From positions 2,377 to 66,376 of the forward strand of contig CAUJJW010000274.1 of the NCBI GenBank assembly GCA_963205105.1: 64,000 nucleotides of DNA. The letters run 5' to 3'. Source of the stretch: Verrucomicrobiota bacterium (lineage in GTDB: Bacteria > Verrucomicrobiota > Verrucomicrobiia > Limisphaerales > CAIMTB01). Shown here in pieces: positions 11,788 through 38,874 of this stretch. The translations under genes were made by a program, and so were the position numbers. Position 1 is the first letter of the stretch. The number at the start of each line of letters is the position of its first letter. The notes under the pieces were generated by a model that saw nothing but the letters and a program-made list of their open reading frames with translations, was not told where the DNA came from and did not search any database.

Positions 11788-13425
11788 TCAGATCGGTACG
11801 GGTTGATAGCCGCCCAACGCCTTTTCGAGATGCGCCATCGCCGCAAAGACCACGTGCTCGGTCCACGGCCGTCCCACCACCTGGACCCCGATGGGAAGCT
11901 TGTTCTTGCAGGAGCCTCCCCGGACGACGCCCGCCGGGTATCCCGTGATGTTGTAGATGGACGTGAAGCTCGCTCCGGGCAGTTCGGTCACCTTGTCCGG
12001 ATCACCGATCATCGGGAGCGGGGTGGAACGAACGGGCGAGATCAGGAGGTCATACTTCTCCATGAAGGTGAGAATCTCTGTTTTGATCGCGTCCTGCGTC
12101 TCCAGCATCGCGATGTACTCGGCCACCGGCACCTGCGGTTGGTCGAATTTGCGCGCCGGTCCCGGAACAATGGTCTTGTACCGCTCCGTCAGGCGCTTCT
12201 GCCATGCGTTGCCGTCGCCGGTCGTCAACTTTCGGCGCAGTTCGTTGGCCTCCATGATCCGGGGCGGAACATCTTCCGCCATGGAACAGCCAGCCGCTTC
12301 CAGTGCCTTGGCCGCGGCCTGGATCACCGCCACCACTTCGCTCGCGGAACCAGCCGCCCCGGGTCCCTGCTGCGTGTAGAACGCCACCCGAAGCCCCCCG
12401 ATCTTCACCACTTTCATGTCCTCCAACGGCACGGCCTGAATTGCCGCGTCGATGTAGTCAGGACCGCTGATGATCGGCAGAATCGTCGCCAAATCCTCCA
12501 CCCGCCGCGCCATCGGCCCCAGCTGCTGGTAGCTGTCGAATGTACCACCGTAGTCGATGATGTGACCCGTGCGAGGAACCCGGCCCGAAGTGGGCTTGAT
12601 CCCGGCAATCCCGCAGGCATGCGACGGACCCCGGATGCTGCCACCAAAGTCCGATCCGATGTCGAACGAAGCACCACCCGCAGCGACAATCGCTCCCGCC
12701 CCACCGCTGGACCCATAGACCGTGTAGCGCGGGTCGTAGGGGTTTCGGGTCATCCCGTAGAGGATATTGGCCGTGGTTCCCAGACCGGAAACACCGCCGG
12801 TGGTGAACTCCGGGGTGTTGGTCTTGCCCAACAAAATGGCACCGGCGGCACGCAGGCGGGCGACAACGGTCGCGTCTCGTGGAGGAACGTAATGCGAGCG
12901 ACCCTGCGTGCCACCGGTGGAAATCACACCTTCCGTCTCAATGGAGTCCTTAATGGTCATCGGCACCCCGTGCAGCGGGCCCTTGACCTGACCTTTCGAA
13001 AGCGCTTCATCCGCCGACTTCGCCTCGGCGAGCGCCCGTTCGAAGCACGGCATCACCACCGCGTTCAGCATCGGATCGACCTTCTGGATCCGATCGATGT
13101 GCAGCTTCACGACTTCCGTCGACGATATCTTCTTTTCCCGAATCATCTGGGCCAGACGCGTCGCCGACATGAACAACGGGTTGTCCGAGGTGTCGGCCGA
13201 CGCGCGATAGGTCCCCGCGGCCAGAGCGCCGCCGATGACGCCGCTCACCGAAGCCACGGCGGAGGGGCGGGTGCGGGTGCGGCGGCGGAAGAGGTCGCGA
13301 CGTGAGATCCCCGGCCGGGATTCGGCGGTGCGCGGCGTGGAACCAACGGCAGGACTTACGGTTTCAGGAGAGGTGTGCATGGGTTGAGGAGGAGGAAAGG
13401 GTTTCGGTGATCGGGACCAGGGCAT
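11788..13425 (-). CDS. Amidase-signature (AS) family amidase, Tat-type clade
   Basis: PMTIKDS (Lys), GSSGGAGA (cis-Ser) and GSDFGGSIRGP (nucleophile Ser). Twin-Arg motif SRRDLF. ATG overlaps the upstream TGA (TGATG). Confidence 0.93.
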   Translation of the reverse strand: MPWSRSPKPFPPPQPMHTSPETVSPAVGSTPRTAESRPGISRRDLFRRRTRTRPSAVASVSGVIGGALAAGTYRASADTSDNPLFMSATRLAQMIREKKISSTEVVKLHIDRIQKVDPMLNAVVMPCFERALAEAKSADEALSKGQVKGPLHGVPMTIKDSIETEGVISTGGTQGRSHYVPPRDATVVARLRAAGAILLGKTNTPEFTTGGVSGLGTTANILYGMTRNPYDPRYTVYGSSGGAGAIVAAGGASFDIGSDFGGSIRGPSHACGIAGIKPTSGRVPRTGHIIDYGGTFDSYQQLGPMARRVEDLATILPIISGPDYIDAAIQAVPLEDMKVVKIGGLRVAFYTQQGPGAAGSASEVVAVIQAAAKALEAAGCSMAEDVPPRIMEANELRRKLTTGDGNAWQKRLTERYKTIVPGPARKFDQPQVPVAEYIAMLETQDAIKTEILTFMEKYDLLISPVRSTPLPMIGDPDKVTELPGASFTSIYNITGYPAGVVRGGSCKNKLPIGVQVVGRPWTEHVVFAAMAHLEKALGGYQPVPI

Positions 13426-15002
13426 CACTTCGACGCGAACATTGTTCCGGGCGGTTTCCAGCCACCGGTCTTTTCGAGGTGATGAGCGGCGGCCAGGATG
13501 ACGTCTTCTTTCCAGGGTTGGCCCACGATTTGAATGCCGAGGGGCAAGCCTTCAGCGGAGGTTCCATAGCGCACCACGACGGCGGGCCAGGTGGTCAGGT
13601 TGTAGATGGAGGTGTACCCGGCGTTCTGCGGGACCGGCTTGGCATGCGCCGGGGCCGGGAACGCGTTCGTCGGGCAGAGAATCAAGTCGTAGTCCTTCAT
13701 CCAGCCCAGCAACCGACTGCGCAGCGCATCCTGACGCTCCATATAATCGGTGAATTCCGAGGTCGGGATGGTGATCCCGGTCAGGTTGTCCTTGATGCCT
13801 GGCGACGGCTCCTTCGTTCCGGCGCGATCGAGCAGCCGCTGGTACCAGGCGCCGCCATCGGCCTTGGTCAGTTTGTTCCGGATCTGGTTGCCAAGGGCGT
13901 CTCCCCCATGGAAGTCCTCCTTCACCCGGGCACCCAGTTCCGCGAAGACCTTCGCAGCCGCGCGGACCATCGCCTGCGTCTCCGGGGTGGGAGTGACCAC
14001 CTGATTGTCCACGTAGTAGGCCACCCGCAGCCCCTTCAGATCGACGGACGCCGGGTCGCCCAACGGCGCGGGAACTGCGGCTGCGTCCCGGAAATCCGGC
14101 CCCGAAATGATCGGAAGGATGGTGACGATATCCTCCACCCAGCGCGCCAGAGGCCCGAGCTGCTGGTAGGAGTCGAACGCACCTCCGTACCCCGGCCAAT
14201 GGCCCGTGCGAGGCACCCGGCCCGTGGTCGGTTTCAAACCCACGATGCCGCAGGCATGGGCTGGCGACCGGATGCTACCACCGAAATCGGACCCGATATC
14301 GAACGCCGAACCGCAGGCCGACACAATGGCGCCGGCGCCACCGCTCGAACCCCGAGGCGTGTGTGCCGTGTTGTAAGGGTTGTTGGTCTGTCCGTAGACC
14401 AGGTTGTAGGTGCCGCGCGTGCCGCCGCCCAAGGTGAATTCAGGGGTGTTGCTCTTTCCCAGCAGGATCGCCCCGCCTTTCCTGAGTCGCGCCACCACCG
14501 TCGCGTCCTTCGAAGGAATGTACTTCTTCAGTCCAAGCGAACCCGCGGTGCTCAGCACACCCTCGGTTTCCAGCGAGTCCTTGATGGTGAACGGGACGCC
14601 ATGGAGCGGACCCGCCACCTCACCCCGGGCCAGCTTGGCATCCGCCGCTTTCGCCTCGGCCTTGGCGCGGTCGGCGCACAAGGCCACCACCGCGTTGATC
14701 CGTGGATTCACCACCTCAATCTGCTTCAGGTAGGCTTCCACCACTTCCACCGACGACACCTGCTTCTCCCGAATCATCCGGCCGAGTTCGGTCGCTGATT
14801 TCGACACGAGATCGGAACCGGTGGGTACTGCGAAACCCGACGGCGTGAAGCGCGTCATCGCCATCGCGCCACCCGCTACGGCCGCGGCTCCGATGAATCG
14901 CCGACGAGAAACGGACGACCGGGCTCCCTGCGTGCGGCCTTCCAGGGAGGGTTCAGGTGGGACGGAGGGATCAAGAGGCTGATGGGACATGGCAGGATGC
15001 AT
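13425..15002 (-). CDS. AS family amidase, Tat-type clade
   Basis: PFTIKDS, RGSSGGAGA and GSDFGGSIRSP. SRRRFIGAAAVAGG twin-Arg signal. Alternative start at 14990. Confidence 0.94.
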   Translation of the reverse strand: MHPAMSHQPLDPSVPPEPSLEGRTQGARSSVSRRRFIGAAAVAGGAMAMTRFTPSGFAVPTGSDLVSKSATELGRMIREKQVSSVEVVEAYLKQIEVVNPRINAVVALCADRAKAEAKAADAKLARGEVAGPLHGVPFTIKDSLETEGVLSTAGSLGLKKYIPSKDATVVARLRKGGAILLGKSNTPEFTLGGGTRGTYNLVYGQTNNPYNTAHTPRGSSGGAGAIVSACGSAFDIGSDFGGSIRSPAHACGIVGLKPTTGRVPRTGHWPGYGGAFDSYQQLGPLARWVEDIVTILPIISGPDFRDAAAVPAPLGDPASVDLKGLRVAYYVDNQVVTPTPETQAMVRAAAKVFAELGARVKEDFHGGDALGNQIRNKLTKADGGAWYQRLLDRAGTKEPSPGIKDNLTGITIPTSEFTDYMERQDALRSRLLGWMKDYDLILCPTNAFPAPAHAKPVPQNAGYTSIYNLTTWPAVVVRYGTSAEGLPLGIQIVGQPWKEDVILAAAHHLEKTGGWKPPGTMFASK

Positions 15003-15053
15003 GGATTCGCTTGGGGTTGGATGAGGTTGGAGTTGGAGGTTGTTGGGCTCGCC

Positions 15054-16142
15054 CTACGGGACGCGGGTGGTCGGAGTGAACCAATACGGCTTGGAATCCT
15101 GGGTGAAGGCCCGCTTCGGGATCATGCCATGGATGCCTTTGGTGCCATCCACGACCTGTGTCACCCGGAAATCCACGCCGATGCTGGAGAAGGTGAATGA
15201 CTTGAAGAAATCCCAGCCACGCCATTCACCGAGAAAATCCACCGTTTCGAGAATGGCCATGCGCATGGCGTCGTCGAGGTCGGGATCCAGGCCGAAAGTC
15301 AGGTAGTGGGTCGCCGTCTCGGCGCGCGGCGCCTTGAGGGTTCGCCCCTTGTGGAGAAAGAACTGAAGCACCGCGGTATTGGCGGTTTCGATGGCGTTGA
15401 CCGTCACTTCGCCATCGCCCTGCGCGGCGTGGGCATCCCCGGTGAAAAACAGTCCGCCCTTGTGGAAGACCGGCAGATACAGCGTTGCGCCCGTGGTGAG
15501 TTCCTTGCAGTCCAGGTTGCCACCGAACCGTCCGGGAGGACCGCTTCGGCGGTTTGCACCTTCCTCGGCCGGGGGCAGAGTTCCCATCACACCCATGAAG
15601 GGCCCCAGGGGGATCTCCACACCGGGCTCGAAAAGGCCCACGTTCCGTTCCAAGTCCAGGTGCACCACCTTGGTGAACGGCCGCGGCACTTTATCCGGGA
15701 TACCACCCCGCCCCGGCATGGTCCCCACCGTCCCGTAAGGGATGCGCGGCACCACTGAAAGAATCCGAACCTCAATCGAATCTCCCGGTTCAGCCCCTTC
15801 GATGGCCACAGGCCCGACCAGGAGATGGCCATTGGTGATGCCAGCATAGCGCGGCGTCTCCGCCAGCACCCGGATCGTCTCGGCAAGACAGGCCTGATTC
15901 GTCGTGATCGCGACTCCATTGTCCTTCAACCACTCCGTCGGCCCCTTGTCGGTGGTCCAGCGAGCACCCCCGCCCGTGTCGAACGTCACGGTATCCCCCG
16001 AGCGAACCGTTAGGATGGGCTGCTTCTGCGACGGGAAGTTGCCAATGGCCGAGTTCTCGGGGGTGAGCGCCACGTGGTGCTCAGCCGCCCCAGAACTCAC
16101 AAGAGTGGCTGCCAGCACCAGAATAAGACGAAGTAGGGTCAT
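15054..16142 (-). CDS. Acetamidase/formamidase (FmdA/AmdA) family protein with signal peptide
   Basis: GHLLVGPVAIEGAEPGD, PFMGVMG, GRFGGNLD and GDAHAAQGDGEV..AIET family motifs. N-terminus MTLLRLILVLAATLVSSGAA is Sec-like. Confidence 0.88.
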   Translation of the reverse strand: MTLLRLILVLAATLVSSGAAEHHVALTPENSAIGNFPSQKQPILTVRSGDTVTFDTGGGARWTTDKGPTEWLKDNGVAITTNQACLAETIRVLAETPRYAGITNGHLLVGPVAIEGAEPGDSIEVRILSVVPRIPYGTVGTMPGRGGIPDKVPRPFTKVVHLDLERNVGLFEPGVEIPLGPFMGVMGTLPPAEEGANRRSGPPGRFGGNLDCKELTTGATLYLPVFHKGGLFFTGDAHAAQGDGEVTVNAIETANTAVLQFFLHKGRTLKAPRAETATHYLTFGLDPDLDDAMRMAILETVDFLGEWRGWDFFKSFTFSSIGVDFRVTQVVDGTKGIHGMIPKRAFTQDSKPYWFTPTTRVP

Positions 16143-16181
16143 GGAAAGAGTGGGTGGGAGACTGTGATGAAGGAGACTATG

Positions 16182-16272
16182 ATAGGACGCATGAGACCAA
16201 TGGGACCTATAGTGAGTGCGCTCGGGGCTGAGTGACGGTCGACATAGGTCCCATAGGTCGTATTGGTCCCAT
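16182..16272. repeat. Inverted pair of 9-bp periodic arrays (ATRGGACCW x3 ... inverse x3)
   Basis: Left arm ATAGGACGC ATGAGACCA ATGGGACCT AT and right arm ATAGGTCCC ATAGGTCGT ATTGGTCCC AT form an intergenic, potentially long stem-loop. Confidence 0.75.
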
Positions 16273-16288
16273 TCCCCATTCCCCAGCC

Positions 16289-17869
16289 TCAGTACTCAAA
16301 GTCCTCCCCGGGCAGTGCCGGCGTCGTGGCTGGCACCCGGCGTTGCGGGTACACCGCCTCAAAGCCCGCCGCGACCCGGAGCAGTTTTGGCTCGGTCCAG
16401 GGACGCCCGAGGATCTCGAGCCCGATCGGTAGTCCTGCCGGCGTAAAGCCCGCCGGGACAATGAACGCCGGCAAGCCGGTCACCGGGCTCGTCTGGTTCG
16501 GCTGATACTTGCTCGTCGGAGCATCCCGATGGCCGATCAGCAGAGGACCATGGAGCTTGTGCGGGTAGATGAGGGCATCCAGCCGGTAGCGGTCCATGAG
16601 TTCGATCAACATCTCCTTGAGCGCAGCCTTCGCCTCCAAAGCGGCGCGATACTCAGGGTCACGGTTCAGATCACGCGGTTTCGCCGCCGCCTGGATGATT
16701 TCCGGCCGCACCGGGTGGATGGTGTTGGCGATCATTTCCTGCACGTTCTTGAACTTGGCCGTCGGACCCTGCCTCGCCAGATACCGGTTGATCGCATCCA
16801 CCCGCTCGTAGCGACTGGGCGAGGCATTGGTGAGATATCGAGGGAGATCAATGCCCAGGCTGACACCACGCACGACCTGCGCGCCGGCCTTCTCGATGGC
16901 GGCGTACGCCTTGTCGAAAAGTTCCACAGCGCCATCCTCCACGGGCTTGAAGTCGTAGGCTTCCTTCAACACACCCAGACGCGCCCCTCGCAGACCGTTG
17001 GTCACCACAAAACTCGTGTACGGCTCCAGCGGCATCTTTCCCAGACTCTGGGCGGTCCAAAGATCCGCCGAATCGAATCCCGCAATCACATCCAACATGG
17101 CGGCGACGTCGTACACCGATCTCGCCATCGGGCCACCGCGCTCACCGGTGATGTAGCTCCACATCTGACCGTCGCGGCTGATCAGACCGGAGGTGGTGGA
17201 AATGCCGCACAGATTCCCATCCGAGGTCGGCGTCCGTATCGAGAATCCGGTTTCGCTGCCCAGGCCGACCGGGGCGAAATAAGCGGCCAATCCGGCCGAA
17301 GTCCCGCTGCTGGACCAGCCTGGAGTGCGATCCAAGGCATGCGGGTTGAGCGAGGATCCCCCCAGGCTGCTGCTGGCGATGATGTCCGTCGCCCCGTACC
17401 AGTCGCTCTGGTTCACCTTCGCCAAAATGATCGCACCGGCTTCCCGCAGCTTCGCGATGATGAAGGCATCCTTGGTCGGTTGCGCATCCGCCATCGCCTT
17501 GAACCCGCCGCTGGTCGGCATGTCGGCCGTGTCGAACACATCTTTGGCGATCACCGGAACCCCATGCAGCGGACTCCGGGGCCCCTTGGCTCGACGCTCC
17601 GCATCCAAGGCTCTGGCCGTCTCCAGGGCCTTGGGATTCAGAGCCAGAACCGCCTTGATCGTTGGTCCCTTCTGATCGTAGGCCTCGATCCGGTTCAGGT
17701 AGAGCTGCACGAGCTTCTCCGACGTCAGCGCTCCTGCCTCGAAGGCAGCCTGAATGTCTCGAAGCGAAGCGTTGCGAAGTTGAAATTGGGCCGCCCCAGC
17801 GCTCAGCACCGCCAGCGTCAGGGCCGCACTCGCGAGCGAAAAACTCTTCCACCAGGTTCGGTAAGTCAT
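16289..17869 (-). CDS. AS family amidase, Sec-type (peptide-amidase-like) clade
   Basis: PVIAKDVFD, GWSSSGTSA and GSETGFSIRTP. Signal ...AALTLAVLSAGA, then LRNASLRDIQAAF. Start taken at MTYRTWW. Confidence 0.92.
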   Translation of the reverse strand: MTYRTWWKSFSLASAALTLAVLSAGAAQFQLRNASLRDIQAAFEAGALTSEKLVQLYLNRIEAYDQKGPTIKAVLALNPKALETARALDAERRAKGPRSPLHGVPVIAKDVFDTADMPTSGGFKAMADAQPTKDAFIIAKLREAGAIILAKVNQSDWYGATDIIASSSLGGSSLNPHALDRTPGWSSSGTSAGLAAYFAPVGLGSETGFSIRTPTSDGNLCGISTTSGLISRDGQMWSYITGERGGPMARSVYDVAAMLDVIAGFDSADLWTAQSLGKMPLEPYTSFVVTNGLRGARLGVLKEAYDFKPVEDGAVELFDKAYAAIEKAGAQVVRGVSLGIDLPRYLTNASPSRYERVDAINRYLARQGPTAKFKNVQEMIANTIHPVRPEIIQAAAKPRDLNRDPEYRAALEAKAALKEMLIELMDRYRLDALIYPHKLHGPLLIGHRDAPTSKYQPNQTSPVTGLPAFIVPAGFTPAGLPIGLEILGRPWTEPKLLRVAAGFEAVYPQRRVPATTPALPGEDFEY

Positions 17870-17873
17870 GGAA

Positions 17874-19016
17874 TCAGTACTGTTCAAAAACCCGCCGCAC
17901 ACCGTTCAGATCCGCACCCTTCGCCAAGGCCATCTGCAGCAACATCCGCGCTTTCTCAGGTTGGAAGTTGTCGCCGGGGACGATGGACGATTCGCGCCGA
18001 CGCGGGGTGTCCTGCACCCGACCGCTCCGAGTCCGGGTGGTCGCCACAACAATGACTCCCTTTTCCTGAGCTCGCTTTACCGCCTCGGATTGCCCACCGG
18101 CCAGGGCGCCGGCCCCTGTCCCGTCAATCACCACGCCCTTCGCCCCATTCGAAACCATCGCATCCAGCAAATAGCCGGGGGCATCGGTGTAGCCGTAAAG
18201 AATCTCCACCGCGGGGAGTGCTTCCGGCAGACCCGCCAAATGGAACTCCGAGGCATGGGTGTGCCGCCTGAGTGGTGCGGTGTGGAACACCACACGATCC
18301 GGATCCACCACCCCGAGAATCCCAAGGTCCGGACTGCGAAACGCCTCCACGCGGTAGGCGCTCATCTTCATCACGTCCCGGGCGGCGTTGATGTTCTGGT
18401 TCATCACGTGAAGAACCCCCATTCCCTCCGCGGACGGCGTCGCCGCCACCCGAACCGCATTGAAGAGATTCAAGGGACCATCGCCGCTCAACCCGGACCA
18501 GGGCCGCTGGGAACCCACAAAAACAATGGGCTTCCGGGTGTTCACCGCCAGGTTCATGAACCAGGCAGTCTCCGCCATGGTGTTGGTCCCGTGGGTCACC
18601 ACCACGCCGTCCACGGTCGGATCATTGACCAGTTCCTGAACACGGGCCGTCACCTTGCGAATATGTGCCGTGGTCATCCCGCCCGCCGACCGTCCCGCCA
18701 CGTCTTCGGGCGCTCGCTGGTCGTCCGGTGTCACGCGGGCCACCAGGGCAAGTTCCGGCAAGGCATCCACCCAATCCTGGGGCGCCACCCGATTGCCGGG
18801 GCCGCCGTAGTTGTTCAGGTTCATCCGGCTCGTCGCCTTGCTGGCGATCGTGCCCCCCATGGACACCAACATCACCCGCGGGAGATTCAGACCCGGAGGC
18901 AAAACCTTTGGGATCTCCTGACCTCGTACACTGCGGCCAATACCCGCCAACACTGCCCCTCCGAGCAGCGCCTGACGCAACGCCGACCGTCGATTCATGG
19001 TTCGTTCAAGGCTCAT
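17874..19016 (-). CDS. Type II asparaginase/glutaminase-fold protein with Tat signal
   Basis: SMGGTIAS, VVTHGTNTMAET, VFVGSQRP, RDVMK and PEKARMLL. NRRSALRQALLGG twin-Arg signal. Alternative start at 18998. Confidence 0.88.
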   Translation of the reverse strand: MSLERTMNRRSALRQALLGGAVLAGIGRSVRGQEIPKVLPPGLNLPRVMLVSMGGTIASKATSRMNLNNYGGPGNRVAPQDWVDALPELALVARVTPDDQRAPEDVAGRSAGGMTTAHIRKVTARVQELVNDPTVDGVVVTHGTNTMAETAWFMNLAVNTRKPIVFVGSQRPWSGLSGDGPLNLFNAVRVAATPSAEGMGVLHVMNQNINAARDVMKMSAYRVEAFRSPDLGILGVVDPDRVVFHTAPLRRHTHASEFHLAGLPEALPAVEILYGYTDAPGYLLDAMVSNGAKGVVIDGTGAGALAGGQSEAVKRAQEKGVIVVATTRTRSGRVQDTPRRRESSIVPGDNFQPEKARMLLQMALAKGADLNGVRRVFEQY

Positions 19017-19025
19017 GGTCGTGTT

Positions 19026-20093
19026 TCAGTACTCGTTGAAGATCCGTTGCAGTTCCCGCGGCTCCTTGGTCTTGGTCAGGGCCACCCTCAGAAGAATCCG
19101 CGCCTTTTGGGCGTTCAGGCTGTCAGCCGTCACCACACCGCGTCCGGCCTGGCGTTCGCTGAGCAACACCCGGCCCGATCCCTTTCGATCGCTCTGAACC
19201 ACAGCCACTCCCTTGGAAACCGCACCCAAAAGGGCCTGGGTCACCGCTGGCGACCCGTCCGCCAGCACGATCCCAGCCGCACCCGCCGTCACCAGTGCCT
19301 TCAGAGGTTCGGCCGATGCCTCCTGGTACCCGTAGACCACGTCCACGGGCGGCAGGTTGGTCAGGGTGCTGACATCAAACTCGGACTTCGCGGTGTGCCG
19401 GGTCAGCGGGGTTCGGTAAAACACCACCTTGTCGGCATCCGCATATCCCAGGGGGCCGATTTCCCTCGAAACGAAGGTCTCCACGCGGGTGGTGTTTCCC
19501 TTGGTCACCCAGCGCGCCGAATGAATGGTGTCGTCGAGCAGGACGAAGACCCCCTTCCCCACCGCCTCGGGCGTCACCGCCGTGCGCACGGCATTGTAGA
19601 GATTCAACGGGCCGTCACGGCTGATCGCCGACCAAGGACGCATGGCGCCGACCACGACCACCGGCTTTTCCGAACGTACGACCAAGTGCAGGAAATAGGC
19701 TGTTTCCTCCAGGGTGCCCGTTCCATGAGTGACCACCGCGCCGGCGACATCCGGACGGGACAAGGCTTCGTTGATGCCCTTGGCCAGTTTCAGCTGGAGT
19801 TCGGTGGTCATGTTGCCACTGCCGAGGTTGCTGACCTCGCGCACCTCCACCCGGGCGATCTCGCTCAATTCCGGGAGATCGGCCAACAACTCCAGGGGAG
19901 TCACCCGGCCGTCGCTGTATTCCGAGAGCTTCTGACGGTGCGCTCCCTTGCTCTGAATCGTCCCGCCCGTGGTGAAGACCACCACTCCAGGCAGCGACTC
20001 CGCCGCTTGCGCCGGAGAACCCGGGCCGGTTAGTCCCATCAGAACGGTCGCGCAGACCGTGCCCAACCATCGCTGGATCATCGTGCGTCGCAT
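19026..20093 (-). CDS. Type II asparaginase/glutaminase-fold protein, exported
   Basis: TTGGTIQS, VVTHGTGTLEET, VVVGAMRP, RWVTKGNTT and LNAQKARILL. Signal peptide ending ...PAQA. Confidence 0.9.
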   Translation of the reverse strand: MRRTMIQRWLGTVCATVLMGLTGPGSPAQAAESLPGVVVFTTGGTIQSKGAHRQKLSEYSDGRVTPLELLADLPELSEIARVEVREVSNLGSGNMTTELQLKLAKGINEALSRPDVAGAVVTHGTGTLEETAYFLHLVVRSEKPVVVVGAMRPWSAISRDGPLNLYNAVRTAVTPEAVGKGVFVLLDDTIHSARWVTKGNTTRVETFVSREIGPLGYADADKVVFYRTPLTRHTAKSEFDVSTLTNLPPVDVVYGYQEASAEPLKALVTAGAAGIVLADGSPAVTQALLGAVSKGVAVVQSDRKGSGRVLLSERQAGRGVVTADSLNAQKARILLRVALTKTKEPRELQRIFNEY

Positions 20094-20099
20094 GGTGTG

Positions 20100-21692: not shown

Positions 21693-21759
21693 GCGCATAC
21701 AGGGAAATTCCGCCACCGTATTCACCGATCTCCGACCGAGCCACAGGGACCCGCGCCGA

Positions 21760-23376: not shown

Positions 23377-23588
23377 CCAGGCCAGGAGTTTCCCTCCCGC
23401 TTTTCCCGGATGAAACGGGGTTGACCCGCCAACCGCACCGACGCCCAACCATCCGCCAACGCCACCACGGGACCGACCGGGACGATGAACGCCGTGCTTT
23501 CGGGATCCCGCCCGTTGGTTCCGGCGGGTCGGCCGGACTGCCGGAGCGGTATGGGTCCTCGGGGATCTTCGGGGGGCGGGGCGCATGG

Positions 23589-25181: not shown

Positions 25182-25186
25182 GAGGG

Positions 25187-26860
25187 TTAGCGGGTCGAGG
25201 TGAGCAGATCCAAGGTGAGGGTCTCTCCAGGCAGAGGAGGCGTGAGGGGCGGTGACTTGCGGTGCTGGGTCACGGCTTCATAGCCGCTCGCCACTTTGAT
25301 CAAGGTGGGCTCCGAGAAGGGTCTCCCGATAACTTGCATCGCGAACGGCATGCCGTCCGAGGGGAAGAATCCGCCGGGAACAATGATCGTCGGCAGTCCG
25401 GTGAAGGAGTGGAGCGTGTTGCGGGTCTCATTGCTGATGCCGCTGCTGCCGTTCACCCGAACATCGGTCGTGTAATCTTGGGGAATGGCTGTTCGGTACG
25501 GCAGCACCAGACAGTCCAGGCGATGTTTGTCCATCAGACCCACCAGGGCTGCCTTCAGCATTTCCTGGTGTTCCTTGATGGCCGCAAACCCGGCATGCCG
25601 GTCCAGCGTCTTGATCTTCGCGGTCTCGATGATCACCGGCTTCACCAGACTCCCACCCTTCGCGATCATTTCCTCAACGCTCCGGATCGGCGCATCCGCC
25701 GGCAGTCCCGCAAGGTAGGCATCAATAGCCAGGGCGCGTGAGTACTTGGCCTCGCCGCCGTCGTTCTGGGTTTCGACCAGATTCAGTCCCGTGAGCACCG
25801 GATCCACGATGACGGCGCCCGCTTCCTTCATGTCGGCCAGCGCCTTTTCAGCCAGGGCTAGGCCTTCGGTATGGATGGGGCCGCTTCGGAACATCTCGCG
25901 CAGCACACCGACCCGCGCTCCGGCCAGCCCCTTTGGGTCCACAAAACTGGTGTACGGACGGTCCGGTAGTTTCCCGATGGACGATTCCGTGATCAGGTCG
26001 CCCGGGTCATAGCCCGCGATGGCATCCAGAACGGCGGCGCAGTCATAGACGCTGCGACCCATGGGCCCGCCCTTCTCCTGGCCTGGCGAACTCCACATCA
26101 TGCCGCGACGGCTGATCAGCCCCTCGGTCATGGCGAAACCGACCAGATTTCCGTGAGCGCTGGGATTGACGATCGAACCGCTGGTGTCGCTGCCGAGTCC
26201 AACCGTGCCGAACCACGCAGCCATGGCGGCGCCAGTACCGGAACTCGATCCACCGCCGTATTTCTTCGGGTTGTACGGGCTCACCACCGGCCCCATCCAG
26301 GTGCTCCCACCTGGAGCCGCCACCCCGTACCAATCCGACTGGTTCAATTTGGCGAGAATGATCGCGCCCGCCTGGCGCAGACGCTCGATCACGAACGCGT
26401 CCCGGGAGGGCTGCGACGTCGCCATCGGTTTGAACCCACCGCTGGTCGGCATGTCTTTCGTGTCGAAGACGTCCTTGGCCATGACCACGATCCCGTGCAA
26501 CGGCGACCGAGGACCCTTCACCCGTCGTTCCGCATCGAGCGCACGCGCCTCTTCCAGGGCCTTCGAGTTCAGCGTCAAAACGGTGTTCAGCTTGGGACCC
26601 TTCTGGTCGTAGGCCTCGATTCGCGCCAGGTAGAGCTGCACCAGCTTCTCAGCCGTCAGCCCACCCGACTCCATCGCCTTCTGCAGTTCCGCCACCGTGG
26701 CGGTCCCCAGGTCGATGGAAACCACGCCATAGGCCGGCAGCGCCATGCCGATCGCCGCAGCAAGGGCCAAAGCCCACCCGTGCGAGCGTCGGGGCGATGG
26801 GGCACGTGACGCCAACCGGTGTTCCGAGGGGATACTCTTGGGGTGAATCGTCGATTTCAT
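25187..26860 (-). CDS. AS family amidase, Sec-type clade
   Basis: VVMAKDVFD, GGSSSGTGA and GSDTSGSIVNP. Signal ...WALALAAAIGMALPAYG. ATG at 26860 overlaps the upstream TGA (ATGA). Confidence 0.92.
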   Translation of the reverse strand: MKSTIHPKSIPSEHRLASRAPSPRRSHGWALALAAAIGMALPAYGVVSIDLGTATVAELQKAMESGGLTAEKLVQLYLARIEAYDQKGPKLNTVLTLNSKALEEARALDAERRVKGPRSPLHGIVVMAKDVFDTKDMPTSGGFKPMATSQPSRDAFVIERLRQAGAIILAKLNQSDWYGVAAPGGSTWMGPVVSPYNPKKYGGGSSSGTGAAMAAWFGTVGLGSDTSGSIVNPSAHGNLVGFAMTEGLISRRGMMWSSPGQEKGGPMGRSVYDCAAVLDAIAGYDPGDLITESSIGKLPDRPYTSFVDPKGLAGARVGVLREMFRSGPIHTEGLALAEKALADMKEAGAVIVDPVLTGLNLVETQNDGGEAKYSRALAIDAYLAGLPADAPIRSVEEMIAKGGSLVKPVIIETAKIKTLDRHAGFAAIKEHQEMLKAALVGLMDKHRLDCLVLPYRTAIPQDYTTDVRVNGSSGISNETRNTLHSFTGLPTIIVPGGFFPSDGMPFAMQVIGRPFSEPTLIKVASGYEAVTQHRKSPPLTPPLPGETLTLDLLTSTR

Positions 26861-28413
26861 GTCGTGAAGTCCTTGGGTTTCTGCCATCCGCCAAACCGCG
26901 TCTCCATCTCCTGCGCCACGGCGATCGACACATCTTCCCGCCACGGGCGGGCCACCACTTGCAGGCCGATGGGAAGTCCTTCCGGGGAGGTGCCAGCCCG
27001 CACCACCAAGGCCGGCCATCCCGTGACGTTGAAGAGGCTTCGGTAACTGGTCGTCTCAGGCGCCTTCTGACCAATCACCCGCGCGGGGGCGGCATCGGTC
27101 GGACACAGCAGCACGTCGTATTTGGAGAACCAGGTCAGCATCCGCGAACGGATTTCATCCTGTTGCTCCAGCGCCTCCTCAAACTCCGGCACCGACAGCG
27201 AAGGACCGTCGAAGACGCGTCCGGGAGAAGGCGGGTGGGTTCCCACACGCGCATTGACCCGGCCGATGAACGCGCCACCGTCCGCACTCCGCACCCGCGG
27301 TAGCAGACCATAGGCTTCCATGTATCCGGAGGGCGCCGATTCCTCGACCACGCAACCCAGGGATTCCATGGCCTTCGCCGCGGCCCGCACCATCGCCACG
27401 GTCTCTGCGGTCGGACCGTGGTAACCGTTCACGTCGGTGAAGAACGCGACGCGAAGCTTCTTGAGATCCACCTTCCACGGATCCAGCACCGGCATCGGCT
27501 TGATCGCGGCGTCCTGAAAGTCCGGCCCCGCCAGGATGGGAAGGAGCAGCGCGATGTCCTCCACCCGGCGCGCCATCGGCCCGATCTGCTGGTAGGCATC
27601 GTAGACGCCGCCGTAATCCACCACGTGACCGGTCCGGGGAACGCGACCTGAGGTGCCCTTCAAGCCGACAATCCCGTTGCAATGAGCCGGATTGCGGATG
27701 CTGCCGCCGAAATCACTGCCAATGTCGAAGGCCGCCCCGCCCGCAGCCACGATGGATCCCGCCCCACCGCTGCTGCCACCGCAGGACCGCGAGGGATCGT
27801 AGGGATTGCGGGTCACTCCGAAGAGGATGTTGACCGTGGTTCCCAGATCCCGAAGTCCAGGACTGCCCAGGGTGAACTCGGGCGTGTTGGTCTTGCCCAG
27901 GAGGATGGCGCCAGCAGCCCGGGCCCTCGCCACCGCGGTGGCGTCGGTGTCCGGAACGCGGGTCAACCACCCGAGAGTGCCACCCGTGGTCCGCACCCCG
28001 GCGGTGTCCAAGGAATCCTTGATGGTCATCGGAACCCCGTGCAGCGGCCCGAGAACTTCCCCTTTTGCCAGGCGTTCATCGGCGAGTTTGGCCTCCAACA
28101 GGGCACGGTCGCCGCACACGGTCACCACGGCATTCAAGATGGGGTTCACCTTGTCGATCTGCTTGAGGAAGGCTTGGACGGCTTCCACCGCCGAAACCTT
28201 CTTGGTCCGGATTTCCTGCGCCAACCGTGACGCCGACATGGAGGTGATCTCTGTCGAGGTGTCGCGCACCAGAGGGGCTACGACCGACGATGCGCGTGCG
28301 TGGACGGCCGTCGCGGACGCCAGAACCGCGGCGACCCGGGACATCGGCTTGAACAAGCTGCGGCGATTCATCGATCCGCGCCGCGTGGTGGAAGAGGTAG
28401 GAGGCATGCTCAT
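26857..28413 (-). CDS. AS family amidase, Tat-type clade
   Basis: PMTIKDS, GGSSGGAGS and GSDFGGSIRNP. NRRSLFK twin-Arg motif. Confidence 0.92.
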   Translation of the reverse strand: MSMPPTSSTTRRGSMNRRSLFKPMSRVAAVLASATAVHARASSVVAPLVRDTSTEITSMSASRLAQEIRTKKVSAVEAVQAFLKQIDKVNPILNAVVTVCGDRALLEAKLADERLAKGEVLGPLHGVPMTIKDSLDTAGVRTTGGTLGWLTRVPDTDATAVARARAAGAILLGKTNTPEFTLGSPGLRDLGTTVNILFGVTRNPYDPSRSCGGSSGGAGSIVAAGGAAFDIGSDFGGSIRNPAHCNGIVGLKGTSGRVPRTGHVVDYGGVYDAYQQIGPMARRVEDIALLLPILAGPDFQDAAIKPMPVLDPWKVDLKKLRVAFFTDVNGYHGPTAETVAMVRAAAKAMESLGCVVEESAPSGYMEAYGLLPRVRSADGGAFIGRVNARVGTHPPSPGRVFDGPSLSVPEFEEALEQQDEIRSRMLTWFSKYDVLLCPTDAAPARVIGQKAPETTSYRSLFNVTGWPALVVRAGTSPEGLPIGLQVVARPWREDVSIAVAQEMETRFGGWQKPKDFTT

Positions 28414-28435
28414 AGGGGGGTCAAGTGGCTGAGTT

Positions 28436-30031
28436 TCAAATGGCCGGGGGTTTCCAACCGCCAAGGACACTCTCGAGGTGTTCCGCGACTGCGAACGCCA
28501 CGTCTTCGCGAAATGGTCGGGCAACCACTTGCAGACCGATCGGCAGCCCTTCACCCGTGCCGCAGCGCACCACCACCGAAGGCCAGCCGGTCAGATTGTA
28601 GATCGTCGTGTAACCCGCACCCGACGGCGCGTCCTCGCCAATCAGACGGGCTGGCGAAGAATTGGTCGGACAAATCAGCACGTCGTAGTCCTTGAACCAC
28701 GCCAGATACTGTCGCTTGAGCAGATCGCGCTTCTCCACGATCTCGCTGAGTTCCGGCATCGAAAGCACCGGACTATCGAACTTGCGACCCGCCGCGGGGA
28801 ACGTTGTCCCCACCTTCTCCGCCAACCGCTTGATCCAAAGGCTGCTGTCGGCGAAACGCAGCTTCGGGTAGAGCGGCCAGATTTCGGTATAACCCGTCGG
28901 TGCAGATTCCTTGACGGACTGGCAGGCGGCCTCCAGCACCTTGGCCGCTGACGTCACCGTCTTCACCGTCTCCGCGGTCGGCTTGTGGTAGTTCTCCACA
29001 TCGGAGAAAAACGCCACCCGCAGCTTCTTGAGATCGACGTCGGCAGCGGACCGGAAAGGAGCCGGCACGATGGCGGCATCCAGGTAATCCTGTCCGGCGA
29101 TGATGGGCGTGATGAGGATCAGATCCTCGACCTTGCGGGCCATGGGTCCGATCTGCTGCTGGTTGTCGTAGATGCCACCGTAGTCGACGGCATGCCCGGT
29201 GCGAGGCACGCGCCCCGAGGTGGGTTTGATGCCGGCGATGCCGTTGTGATGGCATGGTGACCGGATGCTGCCGCCGAAATCGCTGCCGATATCGAACCCG
29301 GACCCGTAGGCGGCCACGATGGCCCCTGCCCCACCGCTGCTGCCGGCGCAGCTTCGCTTGGTGTCGTAGGGATTGCGGGTCAGCCCGAACACCAGGTTCA
29401 TCGTCGTTCCGATCGAGTAGGAACCGCTGCCGATGGTGAATTCCGGTGTGTTGGTCTTCCCCAGCAGGATGGCTCCCGCGGCGCGGGCCCTGCCGACCGA
29501 CGTGGCGTCGTGTTGGGGAATGAAATTGAAGCGACCCAGCGTGCCCCAGGTGGACCGGACACCCGCGGTGTCGAGCGAGTCCTTGATGGTCATCGGCACG
29601 CCATGAAGAGGACCCTTGAGCTTGCCTTGAGCCAGGAGTTCGTCGGCCGATTTGGCTTCCTTCAACGCCAGGTCGAAGGATTTGGTCACCACCGCGTTCA
29701 AATGCGGGTTCACCTGTTCAATCCGATCGATGTAGGCTTTCACCACCTCGGTCGCGGACACCTTCTTGGTCCGGATCAACTCCGCCAAACGTGTCGCGGA
29801 GCATTGGGTGAGGACTTCGGTCTTGTCCTTCGAAGCCATGAAGCCGCCGGCCGGGGCTGCGGCAGCCTTGGCGCGCATCGGACTTTGCAGCGCCAACACC
29901 GTCGGGGCCGCCCATGCCTTGGCGCGGGCGATGAATGCCCGCCGACTATCCACGGCGGGTGAGCGGCGTCCGGAGCGTTCCGGGCGCGAAGCGGAAGGTA
30001 CCATTCCTGATTGGGGTTCGGAATTGTGCAT
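28436..30031 (-). CDS. AS family amidase, Tat-type clade
   Basis: PMTIKDS, AGSSGGAGA and GSDFGGSIRSP. SRRAFIARA twin-Arg motif. Start taken at MHNSEPQ. Confidence 0.92.
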   Translation of the reverse strand: MHNSEPQSGMVPSASRPERSGRRSPAVDSRRAFIARAKAWAAPTVLALQSPMRAKAAAAPAGGFMASKDKTEVLTQCSATRLAELIRTKKVSATEVVKAYIDRIEQVNPHLNAVVTKSFDLALKEAKSADELLAQGKLKGPLHGVPMTIKDSLDTAGVRSTWGTLGRFNFIPQHDATSVGRARAAGAILLGKTNTPEFTIGSGSYSIGTTMNLVFGLTRNPYDTKRSCAGSSGGAGAIVAAYGSGFDIGSDFGGSIRSPCHHNGIAGIKPTSGRVPRTGHAVDYGGIYDNQQQIGPMARKVEDLILITPIIAGQDYLDAAIVPAPFRSAADVDLKKLRVAFFSDVENYHKPTAETVKTVTSAAKVLEAACQSVKESAPTGYTEIWPLYPKLRFADSSLWIKRLAEKVGTTFPAAGRKFDSPVLSMPELSEIVEKRDLLKRQYLAWFKDYDVLICPTNSSPARLIGEDAPSGAGYTTIYNLTGWPSVVVRCGTGEGLPIGLQVVARPFREDVAFAVAEHLESVLGGWKPPAI

Positions 30032-30039
30032 GGGGTTTG

Positions 30040-31572
30040 TCAGATCGAAGGTTTCTTCCAGCCGCCCGTCCGTTCCTCGATGAATTTGGCCACCGCCAGG
30101 GTCACATCGTCCTTCCAGGGTTGGCCGACGATTTGCAGTCCGATCGGGAGACCGTCGGGGCTGGTGCCGGCGCGCACGACCGATCCTGGCCAGCCCGTCA
30201 CGTTGTAGATCCGGGTGTAATTCGCATCGCGCGGTGCCGGCTGATCGAGCCGGGCCGCGGGCACGCCACTCACCGGGCAGAGAATCACATCGTAGTTCTT
30301 CACCCACTGAAGCATCCGGCTCCGCGCGTGATCGACCTCCTCCATGATCTCCAGGAAGTCCGGCGTCGCCGCGTACTTGCCGCTGATCCGCTGTTTGAGT
30401 CCGGGATCCGCCACGACCGTGCCGTAACGCTTGAGCAACCGAACCTGCCAGGCGCCACCCTCAGCTTCCCGCGCCTTATTGGAGATCTCGTAGTCCGACT
30501 TGTAGTTCGGGTGGATGTCCTCCCGCACTTCCGCCCCAGCTTCCCTCAGCCAGCCCGCGGCCGCTTTGACCGTGGCCTGGGTTTCCGGGGTCGGGGTGAA
30601 GACGCCGTTGTCGACGTAGAAGGCCACTCTCAGGCCCGAAAGCTTAACCAGGCTCGGATCCCCCAGTGGAACATCGTAACAAAACGCGTCCTCCATGTCC
30701 TCGCCGCAGATGATCGGCATCAACAGCGCCACATCCTCCACCCGGCGCGCCAATGGCCCGAGTTGCTGCCAGGAGTCGAACAACCCGCCATAGCCCGGGA
30801 CATGCCCCGTACGGGGCGTTCGCCCGGAGGTTGGCTTGATGCCCGCCACCCCGTTGGCGTGGCAGGGCATGCGCACACTGCCACCCAGATCGCTGCCGAT
30901 ATCGAACGCGGCACCGCCCGCGGCCACAATCGCTCCGGCTCCGCCCGAACTGCCCGCCGGCGAATGCGCCAGGTTGTACGGATTGTAGGTTTGCCCGTAG
31001 AGCAGATTCGAGGTGCCCCGGGAGCCTCCACCCATGGTGAACTCCGGCGTGTTCGACTTGCCCAAAAGGATCGCACCGGCCGCCCGCACCCGCGCCACCA
31101 CGGTCGCATCCTTGGCCGGCACATAAAAAGCCCGCCCCAAGGTGCCGGACGTGCTTCGAACTCCCGCAGTCTCCAGCGAATCCTTGATGGTGAACGGAAC
31201 TCCGTGCAGCGGTCCGAGTTTGGCGCCCTTGGCCACCGCTTCGTCCGCCGCCTTGGCTTCCGCCAGGGCCCGCTCAGCGCAGAGGGTCACCACCGCGTTG
31301 ATCTTGGGATTCACTTCGTCGATCCGGCGCAAGTAGGCCTGCACCGCCTCGACCGCTGACACCTTCTTCAGCCGAATGGCCGCGGCCAGCTTGGTCGCCG
31401 ACAGGTAGATCAGTTCATCCGTCGCCTCACCGACGGCTGGTGCTGCCCACGCGCCACCGCCCTTGCTGATGGCCATGGCCCCCAGGGCCGTGGCTCCTGC
31501 GGCGACGAAATGACGCCGGTTCACTGCCCAACCCGGTTGGCTGGGTTTCGAAGTTTTGCTGGAAGTCTTCAT
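30040..31572 (-). CDS. AS family amidase, Tat-type clade
   Basis: PFTIKDS, AGSSGGAGA and GSDLGGSVRMP. NRRHFVAAGATALG twin-Arg signal. Start at 31572 or 31596. Confidence 0.93.
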   Translation of the reverse strand: MKTSSKTSKPSQPGWAVNRRHFVAAGATALGAMAISKGGGAWAAPAVGEATDELIYLSATKLAAAIRLKKVSAVEAVQAYLRRIDEVNPKINAVVTLCAERALAEAKAADEAVAKGAKLGPLHGVPFTIKDSLETAGVRSTSGTLGRAFYVPAKDATVVARVRAAGAILLGKSNTPEFTMGGGSRGTSNLLYGQTYNPYNLAHSPAGSSGGAGAIVAAGGAAFDIGSDLGGSVRMPCHANGVAGIKPTSGRTPRTGHVPGYGGLFDSWQQLGPLARRVEDVALLMPIICGEDMEDAFCYDVPLGDPSLVKLSGLRVAFYVDNGVFTPTPETQATVKAAAGWLREAGAEVREDIHPNYKSDYEISNKAREAEGGAWQVRLLKRYGTVVADPGLKQRISGKYAATPDFLEIMEEVDHARSRMLQWVKNYDVILCPVSGVPAARLDQPAPRDANYTRIYNVTGWPGSVVRAGTSPDGLPIGLQIVGQPWKDDVTLAVAKFIEERTGGWKKPSI

Positions 31573-31628
31573 TGGAATGTTGCCGTCCCGCATCATATGT
31601 CCTTGGGATTCGCCACTAGGCCGCCGAC

Positions 31629-33161
31629 TCAAACTGCCGGTGGCTGCCAGCCGCCCGTCATTGCCTCAATCGCACCCATGACCGCGTAAACCACGTCTTC
31701 GCGCCATGGCCGCCCGATCACTTGGATGCCCATCGGCATGCCTTCCGGTGAAGTGCCCGCCCGAACCACACCAGCCGGCCAGCCGTTGAGGTTGTAGATG
31801 GTGCGATAACTCGCCGTGGAGGGATTGGGCGCGTCGTGGAACGGAGCCGAATACGCATGAACGGGGCAGATCACCACGTCGTACTTCTTCAGCCATCCCA
31901 ATTGCTGCTTCCGGATTCGGTCCTCTTCCTCGAGCAGGAAGGTGAATTCGCCCGCCTTCAGGGTCTTGCCGTTCACCCGGCTCTGGACCATGTGAAACAG
32001 CTTCTCCGTACCCGCCTTCTGGGCGGTGCGGGTGATGTGGCTCCCGCCGCCAGCCGACCGCGACTTCTGCATGATCGCCAACCCCTCGGCGATGGCGGGT
32101 GGTGCGCTCTCTTCGATCGAGGCGACTTCCCCTTCCATGCGGTGAAGAATGCCTCGAACCATCGCCACGGTTTCCGGCCGGGGTTGATGATACCCCTCGC
32201 TGTCGGTGTAGAAGGCCACTCGAAGTTCCTTCAGCTTCACCGCACCAACCGGCCCCAGGGGAACATCGACGACGTGGCTGTCGATCATGTCCGTTCCCTG
32301 AATCACCCGCAGCACCAAGTCGAGATCCTCGACCCGACGGGCGATGGGTCCCAGCTGGGTGCGGGTGTTGAAGATGCCATGCAGGTCCACGATGTGGCCC
32401 GTCCTAGGAACCCGGCAGTTGGTCGGTTTGATTCCAGCCACTCCGTTGAAGTGGCATGGCGACCGAATGCTCCCGCCTGTGTCCGAACCGATGTCGAACG
32501 GCGTGCCCGCCGCAGCCACCAGGGCACCGGAGCCGCCGCTGCTGCCGCCCGGAATCCGCGCGGTGTCGTAGGGATTGTTGGTGCGCCCGTACACGAGATT
32601 ATCCGTGAACGAGCCCATGGTGAATTCGGGGGTATTGGTTTTCCCGAGCAGGATGGCTCCGGCCGCCCTCAACCGAGCAGTCACCGTCGCATCCTCAGCA
32701 GGAACGAAACCCTTCCTGCCCAGGGTACAGCCGGTGCTGACCACCCCCGCGGTATCGATGGAGTCCTTCAACGTCATCGGAACTCCATGGAGCACGCCCA
32801 GTTTGCCGCCTTTGGCTCGGAGTTCATCCGCAGCCCGGGCTTCGGAACGAGCCCTGTCGAAACAGGGCATGACCAGCGCATTGAGACTTGGGTTCACCGA
32901 CTCGATCCGCCGGATGTAGGCCTCGACCACCTCGGTGGAGGAGACTTTGCCGGCACGAATCATCTCGGCGATCTTCACGGCGGACTGGCTCACCAGATCC
33001 CCGGGAGCAGCCGCCGCGGTCGCCCGCGACGCACCACCCCACGAGGCGGCAGCCATCACCGCCATGCCACCGCCCACCCGTGCCAGGAACTCACGCCGGC
33101 AACTCACTCCGGCTCCTGTCTCCGTTCCTACTTCCTGAGAATCTTGTTCGGTGATCGTCAT
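31629..33161 (-). CDS. AS family amidase, Tat-type clade
   Basis: PMTLKDS, GGSSGGSGA and GSDTGGSIRSP. CRREFLARVGGG twin-Arg signal. ATG is 1 nt after the TBDR stop. Confidence 0.93.
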   Translation of the reverse strand: MTITEQDSQEVGTETGAGVSCRREFLARVGGGMAVMAAASWGGASRATAAAAPGDLVSQSAVKIAEMIRAGKVSSTEVVEAYIRRIESVNPSLNALVMPCFDRARSEARAADELRAKGGKLGVLHGVPMTLKDSIDTAGVVSTGCTLGRKGFVPAEDATVTARLRAAGAILLGKTNTPEFTMGSFTDNLVYGRTNNPYDTARIPGGSSGGSGALVAAAGTPFDIGSDTGGSIRSPCHFNGVAGIKPTNCRVPRTGHIVDLHGIFNTRTQLGPIARRVEDLDLVLRVIQGTDMIDSHVVDVPLGPVGAVKLKELRVAFYTDSEGYHQPRPETVAMVRGILHRMEGEVASIEESAPPAIAEGLAIMQKSRSAGGGSHITRTAQKAGTEKLFHMVQSRVNGKTLKAGEFTFLLEEEDRIRKQQLGWLKKYDVVICPVHAYSAPFHDAPNPSTASYRTIYNLNGWPAGVVRAGTSPEGMPMGIQVIGRPWREDVVYAVMGAIEAMTGGWQPPAV

Positions 33162-37299: not shown

Positions 37300-37338
37300 T
37301 TCACGGCCCGCCGCTCCATTCCCAAACTTCTTCTCCCC

Positions 37339-38823: not shown

Positions 38824-38874
38824 ACGTGCTCCGAGAGTTCCCGCAACTCCAACTCCTCAGTCCTAAGCTCCCTT

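Follow-up and report, generated by a model that had tools for sequence, protein, structure and literature searches.

Two old amidase subfamilies, with Tat-type and Sec-type signals, in a receptor-led gene array conserved in Verrucomicrobiota

The peptide amidase Pam of Stenotrophomonas maltophilia (structures 1m21/1m22 and 5ac3) is located in the periplasm and is synthesised with a signal peptide that is later removed. Together with the Bacillus structure 5ewq, it offers the nearest comparison for five of eleven amidase-signature genes that lie in one array, behind a TonB-dependent receptor gene, on a stretch of 64,000 nucleotides of Verrucomicrobiota DNA (hereafter the window), part of contig C274 of an 8.2-Mb, 412-contig metagenome-assembled Verrucomicrobiae genome. 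These five (A5-A9) share with Pam and 5ewq a clade, a full-length match and the Ser-cisSer-Lys triad; they differ in that identity to Pam is moderate and that Pam-like genes are present here in five copies in the operon and about 15 in the genome, and are linked to a receptor. The other six (A1-A4, A10 and A11) are compared most closely with 9je9 and with UMG-SP1/2/3, urethanases that cleave urethane and polyamide bonds (PMC11708778). Among the solved structures compared, this is their sister group, and the TIK(D/E)S and GGSSGG/GSDxGGSIR motifs are common to both, the alignment being strong over the N-terminal half only; however, the crystallised UMG-SP and 9je9 chains begin at the catalytic domain and lack the N-terminal extension of the six. 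GatA shares with the six its fold, its triad and its side of a deep phylogenetic split, but the six have export signals, no GatC or GatB neighbours, and scores under the cut-off of the GatA model TIGR00132.

Two further systems bear on the locus as a whole. TonB-receptor-led polysaccharide utilisation loci likewise place a receptor at the head of co-oriented secreted hydrolases, with a regulator near and with variable copy number. The present locus differs from them in encoding amidases and asparaginase-fold enzymes rather than glycoside hydrolases, in having neither a SusD-like protein nor an inner-membrane importer, and in the attachment of a TonB2-like energiser and an RND pump. Cofactor-free substrates of the twin-arginine translocation (Tat) pathway are also known, as are Tat "hitchhiker" complexes such as the small and large subunits of hydrogenase. 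By sequence, the six resemble such substrates in an RRxFL-type motif, a weak h-region and a basic c-region residue, and they resemble hitchhiker systems in that signal-less family members occur beside signal-bearing ones.

Fifteen enzyme genes follow the receptor gene on the minus strand, within 35844-9854 (Table 1). Eleven of the 15 products match PF01425 over the full model (model positions 1-2 to 442-445 of 445; E 1.8e-72 to 2.1e-106; 245-357 bits vs a cut-off of 27), with zero internal stops, and alignment with Pam, GatA and UMG-SP3 places the catalytic Lys of xxKD, the cis-Ser of the GSS motif and the nucleophile Ser of GS(I/V) in all eleven. The other four products comprise a pair of type II asparaginase-like enzymes, a divergent asparaginase-like protein and a protein of FmdA/AmdA fold. 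An earlier note, made from the nucleotide sequence of the window, had described eleven intact, triad-bearing amidases in two motif-defined groups, and this description proved accurate, coordinates included. The TI/LKDS motif and the C-terminal GG(W/Y)xxP motif are present in the six; an xxD/E(L/I)Q(A/K)A helix and AYDxKGP are present in the five, A6 having the variant AYDKQGP; and the blocks run as it had listed them, with four genes of twin-arginine (RR) type, four of Sec type, two of asparaginase fold, one of Sec type, the FmdA-like gene and two of RR type. The receptor stop lies 1 nt ahead of the A1 start, the A4 stop and A5 start overlap as ATGA (4 nt), and with refined starts the spacings range from this 4-nt overlap up to 212 nt (A6-A7). 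Terminator-like sites number eight against 14.4 expected by chance, with none between genes. No paralogue of the receptor was found in the genome, and the operon lacks a gene for an inner-membrane importer.

The relationships of the eleven were examined in a maximum likelihood tree built from catalytic-domain columns only, signal-peptide columns being excluded, for 76 sequences: the 11 window amidases, 12 from the same genome, 48 database homologues and five references taken from PDB alignments. The six and the five fall on opposite sides of a branch with support 100/99, a division that coincides exactly with signal type, as the earlier note had expected. On one side stand A5-A9, Pam (1m21), 5ewq and every other tandem amidase of the genome, the clade that contains Pam comprising 29 rows with 5ewq and A5-A9 (support 99/87). 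On the other side are GatA and a 40-row clade (99/99) holding A1-A4, A10 and A11, here called the Tat clade, which among the solved structures included in the tree is sister to UMG-SP3/9je9 (100/98). Searches against solved structures gave a concordant picture: A6 matches Pam 1m21 over residues 32-513 (E 3.6e-62) and 5ac3 likewise over its full length (E ~3e-62), and the best match of A1 is 9je9, an uncharacterised amidase (E 8.5e-54), with UMG-SP3 (E 4e-48) ranked directly after three GatA chains. The solved structures nearest to the six as a group are 9je9, GatA, polyurethane urethanases, biuret hydrolase and NylA. The ten scanned amidases (all but A7) are not GatA itself: they score 168-231 bits on TIGR00132 (215-231 bits for the six Tat-clade members) against a cut-off of 481, and the true GatA gene lies on contig C336 (E 9.5e-154). 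The Arg that follows the nucleophile Ser is absent in A5, A6 and A7, and in Pam as well (GSIVCP); its absence is a Pam-like trait and not a peculiarity of the locus.

Sequence identity is 48-62% within the six, 40-67% within the five and 26-36% between the groups, the last being no higher than that of either group to the cell's own GatA, and the approximately unbiased (AU) test rejects monophyly of the eleven (ΔlnL 3458, p 0.001). The eleven therefore represent two old subfamilies set side by side, not one family diversified in the operon. It is true that the genes stand next to one another in a single orientation and in blocks by type, that A5 and A7 are 67% identical, and that Pam-like copy number differs among relatives, all of which could be expected had a single amidase been duplicated at the locus and one lineage later switched between the Sec and Tat routes. 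Such an origin is nevertheless extremely improbable: in addition to the AU test and an identity between clades that is level with that to GatA, the tree places the six beside UMG-SP3/9je9 and GatA, and the five beside Pam; A1-A4, A6 and A10 each have an orthologue of their own in other organisms; and no Sec-type signal is seen inside the Tat-clade family, as represented by the members of a 130-row tree. Because the eleven are not paralogues born at the locus, signal type is a trait of the subfamily, and each subfamily shows its own type well outside this genome. The earlier proposal that export route tracks lineage thus holds true in the tree, but not in the sense of one family diversifying locally with a switch of route, which the AU test and the 26-36% identity oppose; the correspondence stems largely from two long-separate subfamilies that have each kept their own type of signal.

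Further Pam-like tandem arrays are present elsewhere in the genome, at C299:28597-39509 (six genes) and C212:61243-66219 (three genes). These were considered as copies of the locus and rejected as such, since they lack receptor, asparaginase and FmdA partners. The C299 array adjoins a gene for a 3625-aa, repeat-rich protein of surface type, and in one of its amidases (C299:33570-35648) the C-terminus is extended by about 150 aa.

The RR motifs of the six read CRREFL, NRRHFV, SRRAFI, NRRSLF, SRRRFI and SRRDLF. In every case the RR pair with its two hydrophobic residues lies inside the protein, 17-33 codons after the first plausible ATG; after it come 13-20 uncharged residues of modest hydropathy (peak over 10 residues, 1.58-1.97) and then a basic residue (R or K). 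In orthologues from five related loci the mature domains are 62-94% identical and the N-termini are otherwise nearly unalignable, and RR-Φ-Φ (Φ, hydrophobic residue) is present in every signal-bearing orthologue. The refined starts place the motifs within the coding sequence. RR motifs upstream of the true starts would have told against the earlier note, as would a tree without two clades matching signal type, and neither outcome arose. The closest 120 database relatives of A1 divide into 54 with an N-terminal extension, 51 of them with an RR motif, and 66 signal-less ones that begin at the catalytic domain. The closest 120 relatives of A6 have short, strongly hydrophobic Sec-type signals wherever the full N-terminus has been called, ending just ahead of a conserved FDL-x-TAT motif. 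Among homologues, mean peak hydropathy is 1.77 in the Tat clade vs 2.58 in the Sec group (p 1e-19); the signals have a median length of 58 vs 37 residues. In alignment, the predicted cleavage point of A6 coincides with the start of the Pam chain as crystallised; A6 was also considered as a lipoprotein and rejected, the Cys in question not being conserved in orthologues. TatC is encoded on contig C129 (E 6e-52, 178 bits).

Profile searches for Tat signals gave uneven results. The curated model TIGR01409 (cut-off 16.7) is passed by A10 only (22.5 bits), with A2 below it at 13.2 bits; A1 and A4 show weak matches only, to a formate-dehydrogenase Tat-target model, and A3 and A11 match no Tat hidden Markov model (HMM). 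The A11 signal (13171-13380) is in addition atypical, in that an Arg-rich segment, RRRTRTRPS, is inserted after the RR motif and ahead of the h-region, although the motif and a similar basic insert are retained in three orthologues. These results, the absence of a signal from more than half of the close relatives, the existence of signal-less A3 and A4 orthologues, and start codons that are inferred, not mapped, would be compatible with RR motifs that do not work as Tat signals, the proteins either passing through Sec despite the RR pair or starting downstream and remaining cytoplasmic. We regard this as quite unlikely. The RR pair with two hydrophobic residues is the sole invariant in fast-diverging N-termini across at least five orthologue sets; alternative downstream starts would leave no signal and no charged n-region; the low hydrophobicity of the h-region, the basic c-region residue and the long n-regions form the classical Tat pattern and are significantly unlike those of the Sec group; and the genome has TatC. 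As only A10 passes a Tat HMM, the assignment rests mainly on conservation of the motif, and the predicted targeting of the six to Tat is accordingly well supported as a family trait and not settled gene by gene.

Use of Tat may be common in this organism. A rough scan of the long open reading frames of the genome returned 62 strict [ST]RRxF[LIVM] candidates with an uncharged stretch, and about 270 under loose settings, which suggests heavy use of Tat export. With this many strict candidates, Tat use is unremarkable in itself here, and the suggestion of the earlier note, that Tat use points to proteins folded or oligomerised ahead of export, carries less weight.

Signal-less members of the Tat-clade family nonetheless keep the idea of folding before export alive, as they make up more than half of the close relatives and include orthologues within the operon of a relative. 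In the 130-row tree of this family, signal state requires eight changes, compared with about 45 when labels are shuffled. The three N-extended sequences without an RR motif look like products of mis-called starts, and in one of them (P0004) the motif was recovered from an upstream ATG. Signal-less members are basal in the 76-row tree, whereas the quick 130-row tree nests a 61-row signal-less clade among RR-bearing groups; since the two trees disagree, only the clustering of signal states is secure, not the direction of gain or loss. The L016 locus (JGI 3300015615, a contig of 230,696 bp) contains the same operon, its A1 being 80% identical to that of the window, but its A3 and A4 orthologues (13051-15891; 87% identical) are without a signal peptide. 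They begin exactly at the mature N-terminus (MRYLTSKDK... and MHHSDD...), with the upstream frame closed and the catalytic motifs intact. A signal-less form of A4 was found again in an independent sample (L017:1118-2527). An unrelated contig (L018:811-3703; ENA ERZ27247320) encodes a signal-less Tat-clade amidase of 460 aa, with a TonB-dependent receptor gene nearby, and a Tat-type paralogue (ISRRDFLGAATFASLL) that starts 10 nt after it.

Judged from their sequences, such variants show that the fold probably works without export, and they are compatible either with a function in the cytoplasm or with export in company with a signal-bearing partner. That Tat use means oligomerisation is best treated as a hypothesis, with suggestive natural variants. 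In its fullest form, it would hold that the Tat-clade amidases fold and assemble into hetero-oligomers in the cytoplasm and leave it as complexes, signal-less members hitchhiking on signal-bearing ones, and that the locus is a new nitrogen-harvesting "amide utilisation locus". We consider this combined proposal speculative and, on balance, unlikely. If true, it would account for six diverged paralogues held in fixed order in sister species, for the two signal-free orthologues of a relative that retain 87% identity and intact catalytic motifs, and for the pair on an unrelated contig in which a signal-less copy and a Tat-bearing one are separated by 10 nt.

The array is conserved in content and order. 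At all five related loci (G003, G004, G005, L004 and L016) an orthologue of the receptor heads the same succession: A1-A2-A3-A4, then one to four Pam-like genes, then the downstream remainder. L004 and L016 were fetched only to N1-N2; G003-G005 extend to the far end of the array and continue through A10-A11 to the adaptor and RND pump, which in each of the three come after A11 or N3, as in the window. Tat-clade genes stand in the window's order wherever covered, and all six are present in the three loci (3/3) that reach the end. The rest of the array is more fluid: Pam-like genes vary from one to five per locus, and asparaginase-like and FmdA-like genes come and go. N1-N2-A9 precede A10 in G004 and G005 and are missing in G003; the FmdA-like gene is present in G004 and absent from G003 and G005. 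A6 is the sole Pam-like gene found in all related loci, and A7 and A8, missing at L004 and L016, are extra in the window and look like a recent addition. The DUF3450-ExbB-ExbB-ExbD-TonB-TPR set with its LysR gene occupies the same place in L002-L004 and L016. A TGGCAYR-N4-GTGCT element (GG-N10-GC) precedes the receptor gene in 5/5 genus-level loci (the window, L004, G003, G004 and G005), with variation in the letters of the spacer.

Within the genus, five species have 24, 15, 13, 12 and 9 amidases and the other nine have 1-3, the number also found in other genera of the order. The Tat-clade family occurs in 7 of 301 genomes sampled across the phylum, usually clustered. Congregicoccus parvus is a garden-soil isolate (PMC12193912), and its description makes no mention of amidases; the genome of strain ASA1 (AP028972.1) yields 32 amidase matches in total, about 25 of them in tandem within 49 kb (region ~2,073,000-2,132,000; L010, L012-L015). 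This array stands directly behind a TonB system, here without the LysR gene, and a receptor; it includes six asparaginase-like genes, and here too RR and Sec signals divide along the clades. The σ54-like element was not found in C. parvus. An Opitutaceae metagenome-assembled genome has the same mix, including a long divergent asparaginase-like protein. In the open-access literature we found no paper joining "amidase signature" with "twin-arginine" or "Tat signal", and none that relevantly connects amidases with TonB-dependent receptors in Verrucomicrobia. Of greater note is a conserved, receptor-led battery of amidases in Verrucomicrobiota that is undescribed and is now tied to a culturable organism.

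We consider it probable that the locus is one receptor-led operon of envelope-targeted amidohydrolases, with six of Tat type, five Pam-like of Sec type, three of asparaginase fold and one FmdA-like; an export signal was recognised on every enzyme. Each amidase subfamily would have been recruited with the export route typical of its own family. Amide groups account for a large proportion of the organic nitrogen of soils and waters. The TonB-dependent receptor may import amide-bearing compounds, powered by the dedicated TonB-ExbBD system, and the periplasmic enzymes, each from a family whose members free ammonia from carboxamides, may then deamidate them. Ammonium would be the product harvested, since no importer for the inner membrane is part of the operon, and the RND pump may serve to remove the resulting acids. 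Nitrogen control would be in keeping with the σ54-like element.

Several observations weigh against this reading, in addition to the Tat profile results and the A11 insert described above. A battery that is purely periplasmic is not universal, given the signal-less A3 and A4 of L016. None of the ten scanned amidases reaches the cut-off of a named NCBIfam equivalog; all matches are to generic "amidase" models and under cut-off. Linkage of the pump to the array is confined to the genus: in C. parvus, none was seen in the roughly 8 kb beyond the downstream end of the array. The window lacks a σ54 activator gene, and no RNA run holding the locus was found.

The occurrence of the window sequence in metagenomes from biofilm, wastewater and activated sludge, the presence of UMG-SP urethanases (PMC11708778) and NylA among the solved structures nearest to the six, and the patchy distribution (5/14 species of the genus, 7/301 genomes) raise a different prospect, namely that the locus is an island for the degradation of xenobiotics or polymers (nylon or polyamide oligomers, polyurethane carbamates, polyacrylamide), acquired in wastewater, and does not serve general nitrogen scavenging. 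This appears doubtful to us. G+C content does not change between the locus and the DNA on either side; several species of the genus show synteny at the locus, with analogous arrays in the garden-soil C. parvus and in other environmental metagenomes; small primary amides are the substrates suggested by the asparaginase-fold and FmdA-like partners; and similarity to urethanases is at the level of the subfamily only (E ~1e-44 to 1e-48). A reading of the receptor as a corrinoid importer, which likened six primary amides to six amidases, was dropped when an Rfam scan revealed no riboswitch, nor any other RNA family, in the window.

Some individual genes call for comment. The n-region of A5 also has an RR pair, not conserved in the L004 orthologue. 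The start of A7 is best placed at GTG 23376, which has GGAGGG ahead of it, opens a signal with n-, h- and c-regions and aligns with the G005 orthologue; the frame is open to 23592, where it would overlap the A6 stop as GTGA, so that 23377-23592 is either a 212-nt gap or an ambiguous start. The reading of this open stretch is rich in Arg, Pro and Gly and is absent from the G005 orthologue. A9 is sister in the tree to a C140 amidase of the same genome. N1 exceeds the TIGR00520 cut-off (362.9 vs 314.3 bits) and N2 falls slightly under it (297 bits); N2 has an RR-type signal beside the Sec-type signal of N1, a mixed pattern of export that reaches past the amidase-signature genes. The FmdA-like protein is far under the formamidase equivalog cut-off. 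N3 has an orthologue in G005 and a comparable protein of 609 aa in the Opitutaceae amidase array.

Table 1. Features of the receptor-led array and its flanks (window positions; a slash marks the predicted signal cleavage point)
Feature	Position	Strand	Remarks
TonB-dependent receptor, first gene of operon	33163..35844	-	Plug domain; siderophore-type receptor matches weak, sub-threshold
A1, Tat-clade amidase	31629..33161	-	signal ...GVSCRREFLARVGGGMAVMAAASWGGASRATAAAAP; PF01425 E 2.1e-106, triad intact; RR motif retained in orthologues P0001-P0011 and at G003-G005
A2, Tat-clade amidase	30040..31596	-	signal ...WAVNRRHFVAAGATALGAMAISKGGGAWAAP; PF01425 E 3.2e-103; RR conserved in orthologues
A3, Tat-clade amidase	28436..30031	-	signal ...AVDSRRAFIARAKAWAAPTVLALQSPMRAKAAAAP; PF01425; RR retained in four orthologues
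A4, Tat-clade amidase	26857..28413	-	signal ...SMNRRSLFKPMSRVAAVLASATAVHARASS; PF01425; RR conserved in orthologues
A5, Pam-like amidase	25187..26860	-	Sec-type signal; PF01425; Pam clade in tree
A6, Pam-like amidase	23589..25181	-	signal MNACPLLLRLIALLVLTCAASKAHA/AAVDL; full-length matches to Pam 1m21 and 5ac3
A7, Pam-like amidase	21760..~23376	-	start uncertain; PF01425
A8, Pam-like amidase	20100..21698	-	signal MRMNRTIRWMAGWLAVSLSVSSGAA/SFDL; PF01425; Pam clade in tree
N1, type II asparaginase-like enzyme	19026..20093	-	Sec-type signal; Pfam Asparaginase and Asparaginase_C
N2, asparaginase-fold enzyme	17874..19016	-	RR-type signal MNRRSALRQALLGGAVLAG; Pfam match
A9, Pam-like amidase	16289..17869	-	signal MTYRTWWKSFSLASAALTLAVLSAGAA/QFQL; PF01425; Pam clade in tree
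FmdA/AmdA-like protein, acetamidase/formamidase fold	15054..16142	-	Sec-type signal; PF03069 E 6.9e-32
A10, Tat-clade amidase	13425..15002	-	signal ...SSVSRRRFIGAAAVAGGAMAMTRFTPSGFAVP; PF01425; RR conserved in orthologues
A11, Tat-clade amidase	11788..13380	-	atypical signal ...GISRRDLFRRRTRTRPSAVASVSGVIGGALAAGTYRASA; PF01425
N3, divergent asparaginase-like protein, ~590 aa	9854..11632	-	weak Pfam matches to Asparaginase N- and C-terminal domains
HlyD-type adaptor	8623-9819	-	Pfam match
AcrB-type RND pump	5493-8813	-	Pfam match; 3' end of array
σ54-like -24/-12 element, TGGCATG-N4-GTGCT	35948..35963	-	upstream of receptor gene
DUF3450-ExbB-ExbB-ExbD-TonB-TPR set and LysR	36454..43207	+	Pfam matches; divergent from array
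LysR-family regulator	42164-43207	+	after the DUF3450-ExbB-ExbB-ExbD-TonB-TPR set

The wider meaning of the locus may be viewed at several levels. If the proposed working is correct, 11 to about 25 periplasmic amidases fed by a receptor would constitute a system dedicated to the stripping of amide nitrogen, on a design like that of polysaccharide utilisation loci, and the largest version, carried by the cultured C. parvus ASA1, makes the proposal directly testable. The suggestion of the earlier note that these genes are a target for enzyme mining is a reasonable one, as the solved structures nearest to the six include urethanases, biuret hydrolase and NylA; a clade of six members that is sister to polyurethane and polyamide hydrolases would provide many natural variants competent for secretion. 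Finally, the partition between Tat and Sec signals, together with the signal-less orthologues, would offer a compact system in which to ask why cofactor-free enzymes use Tat.

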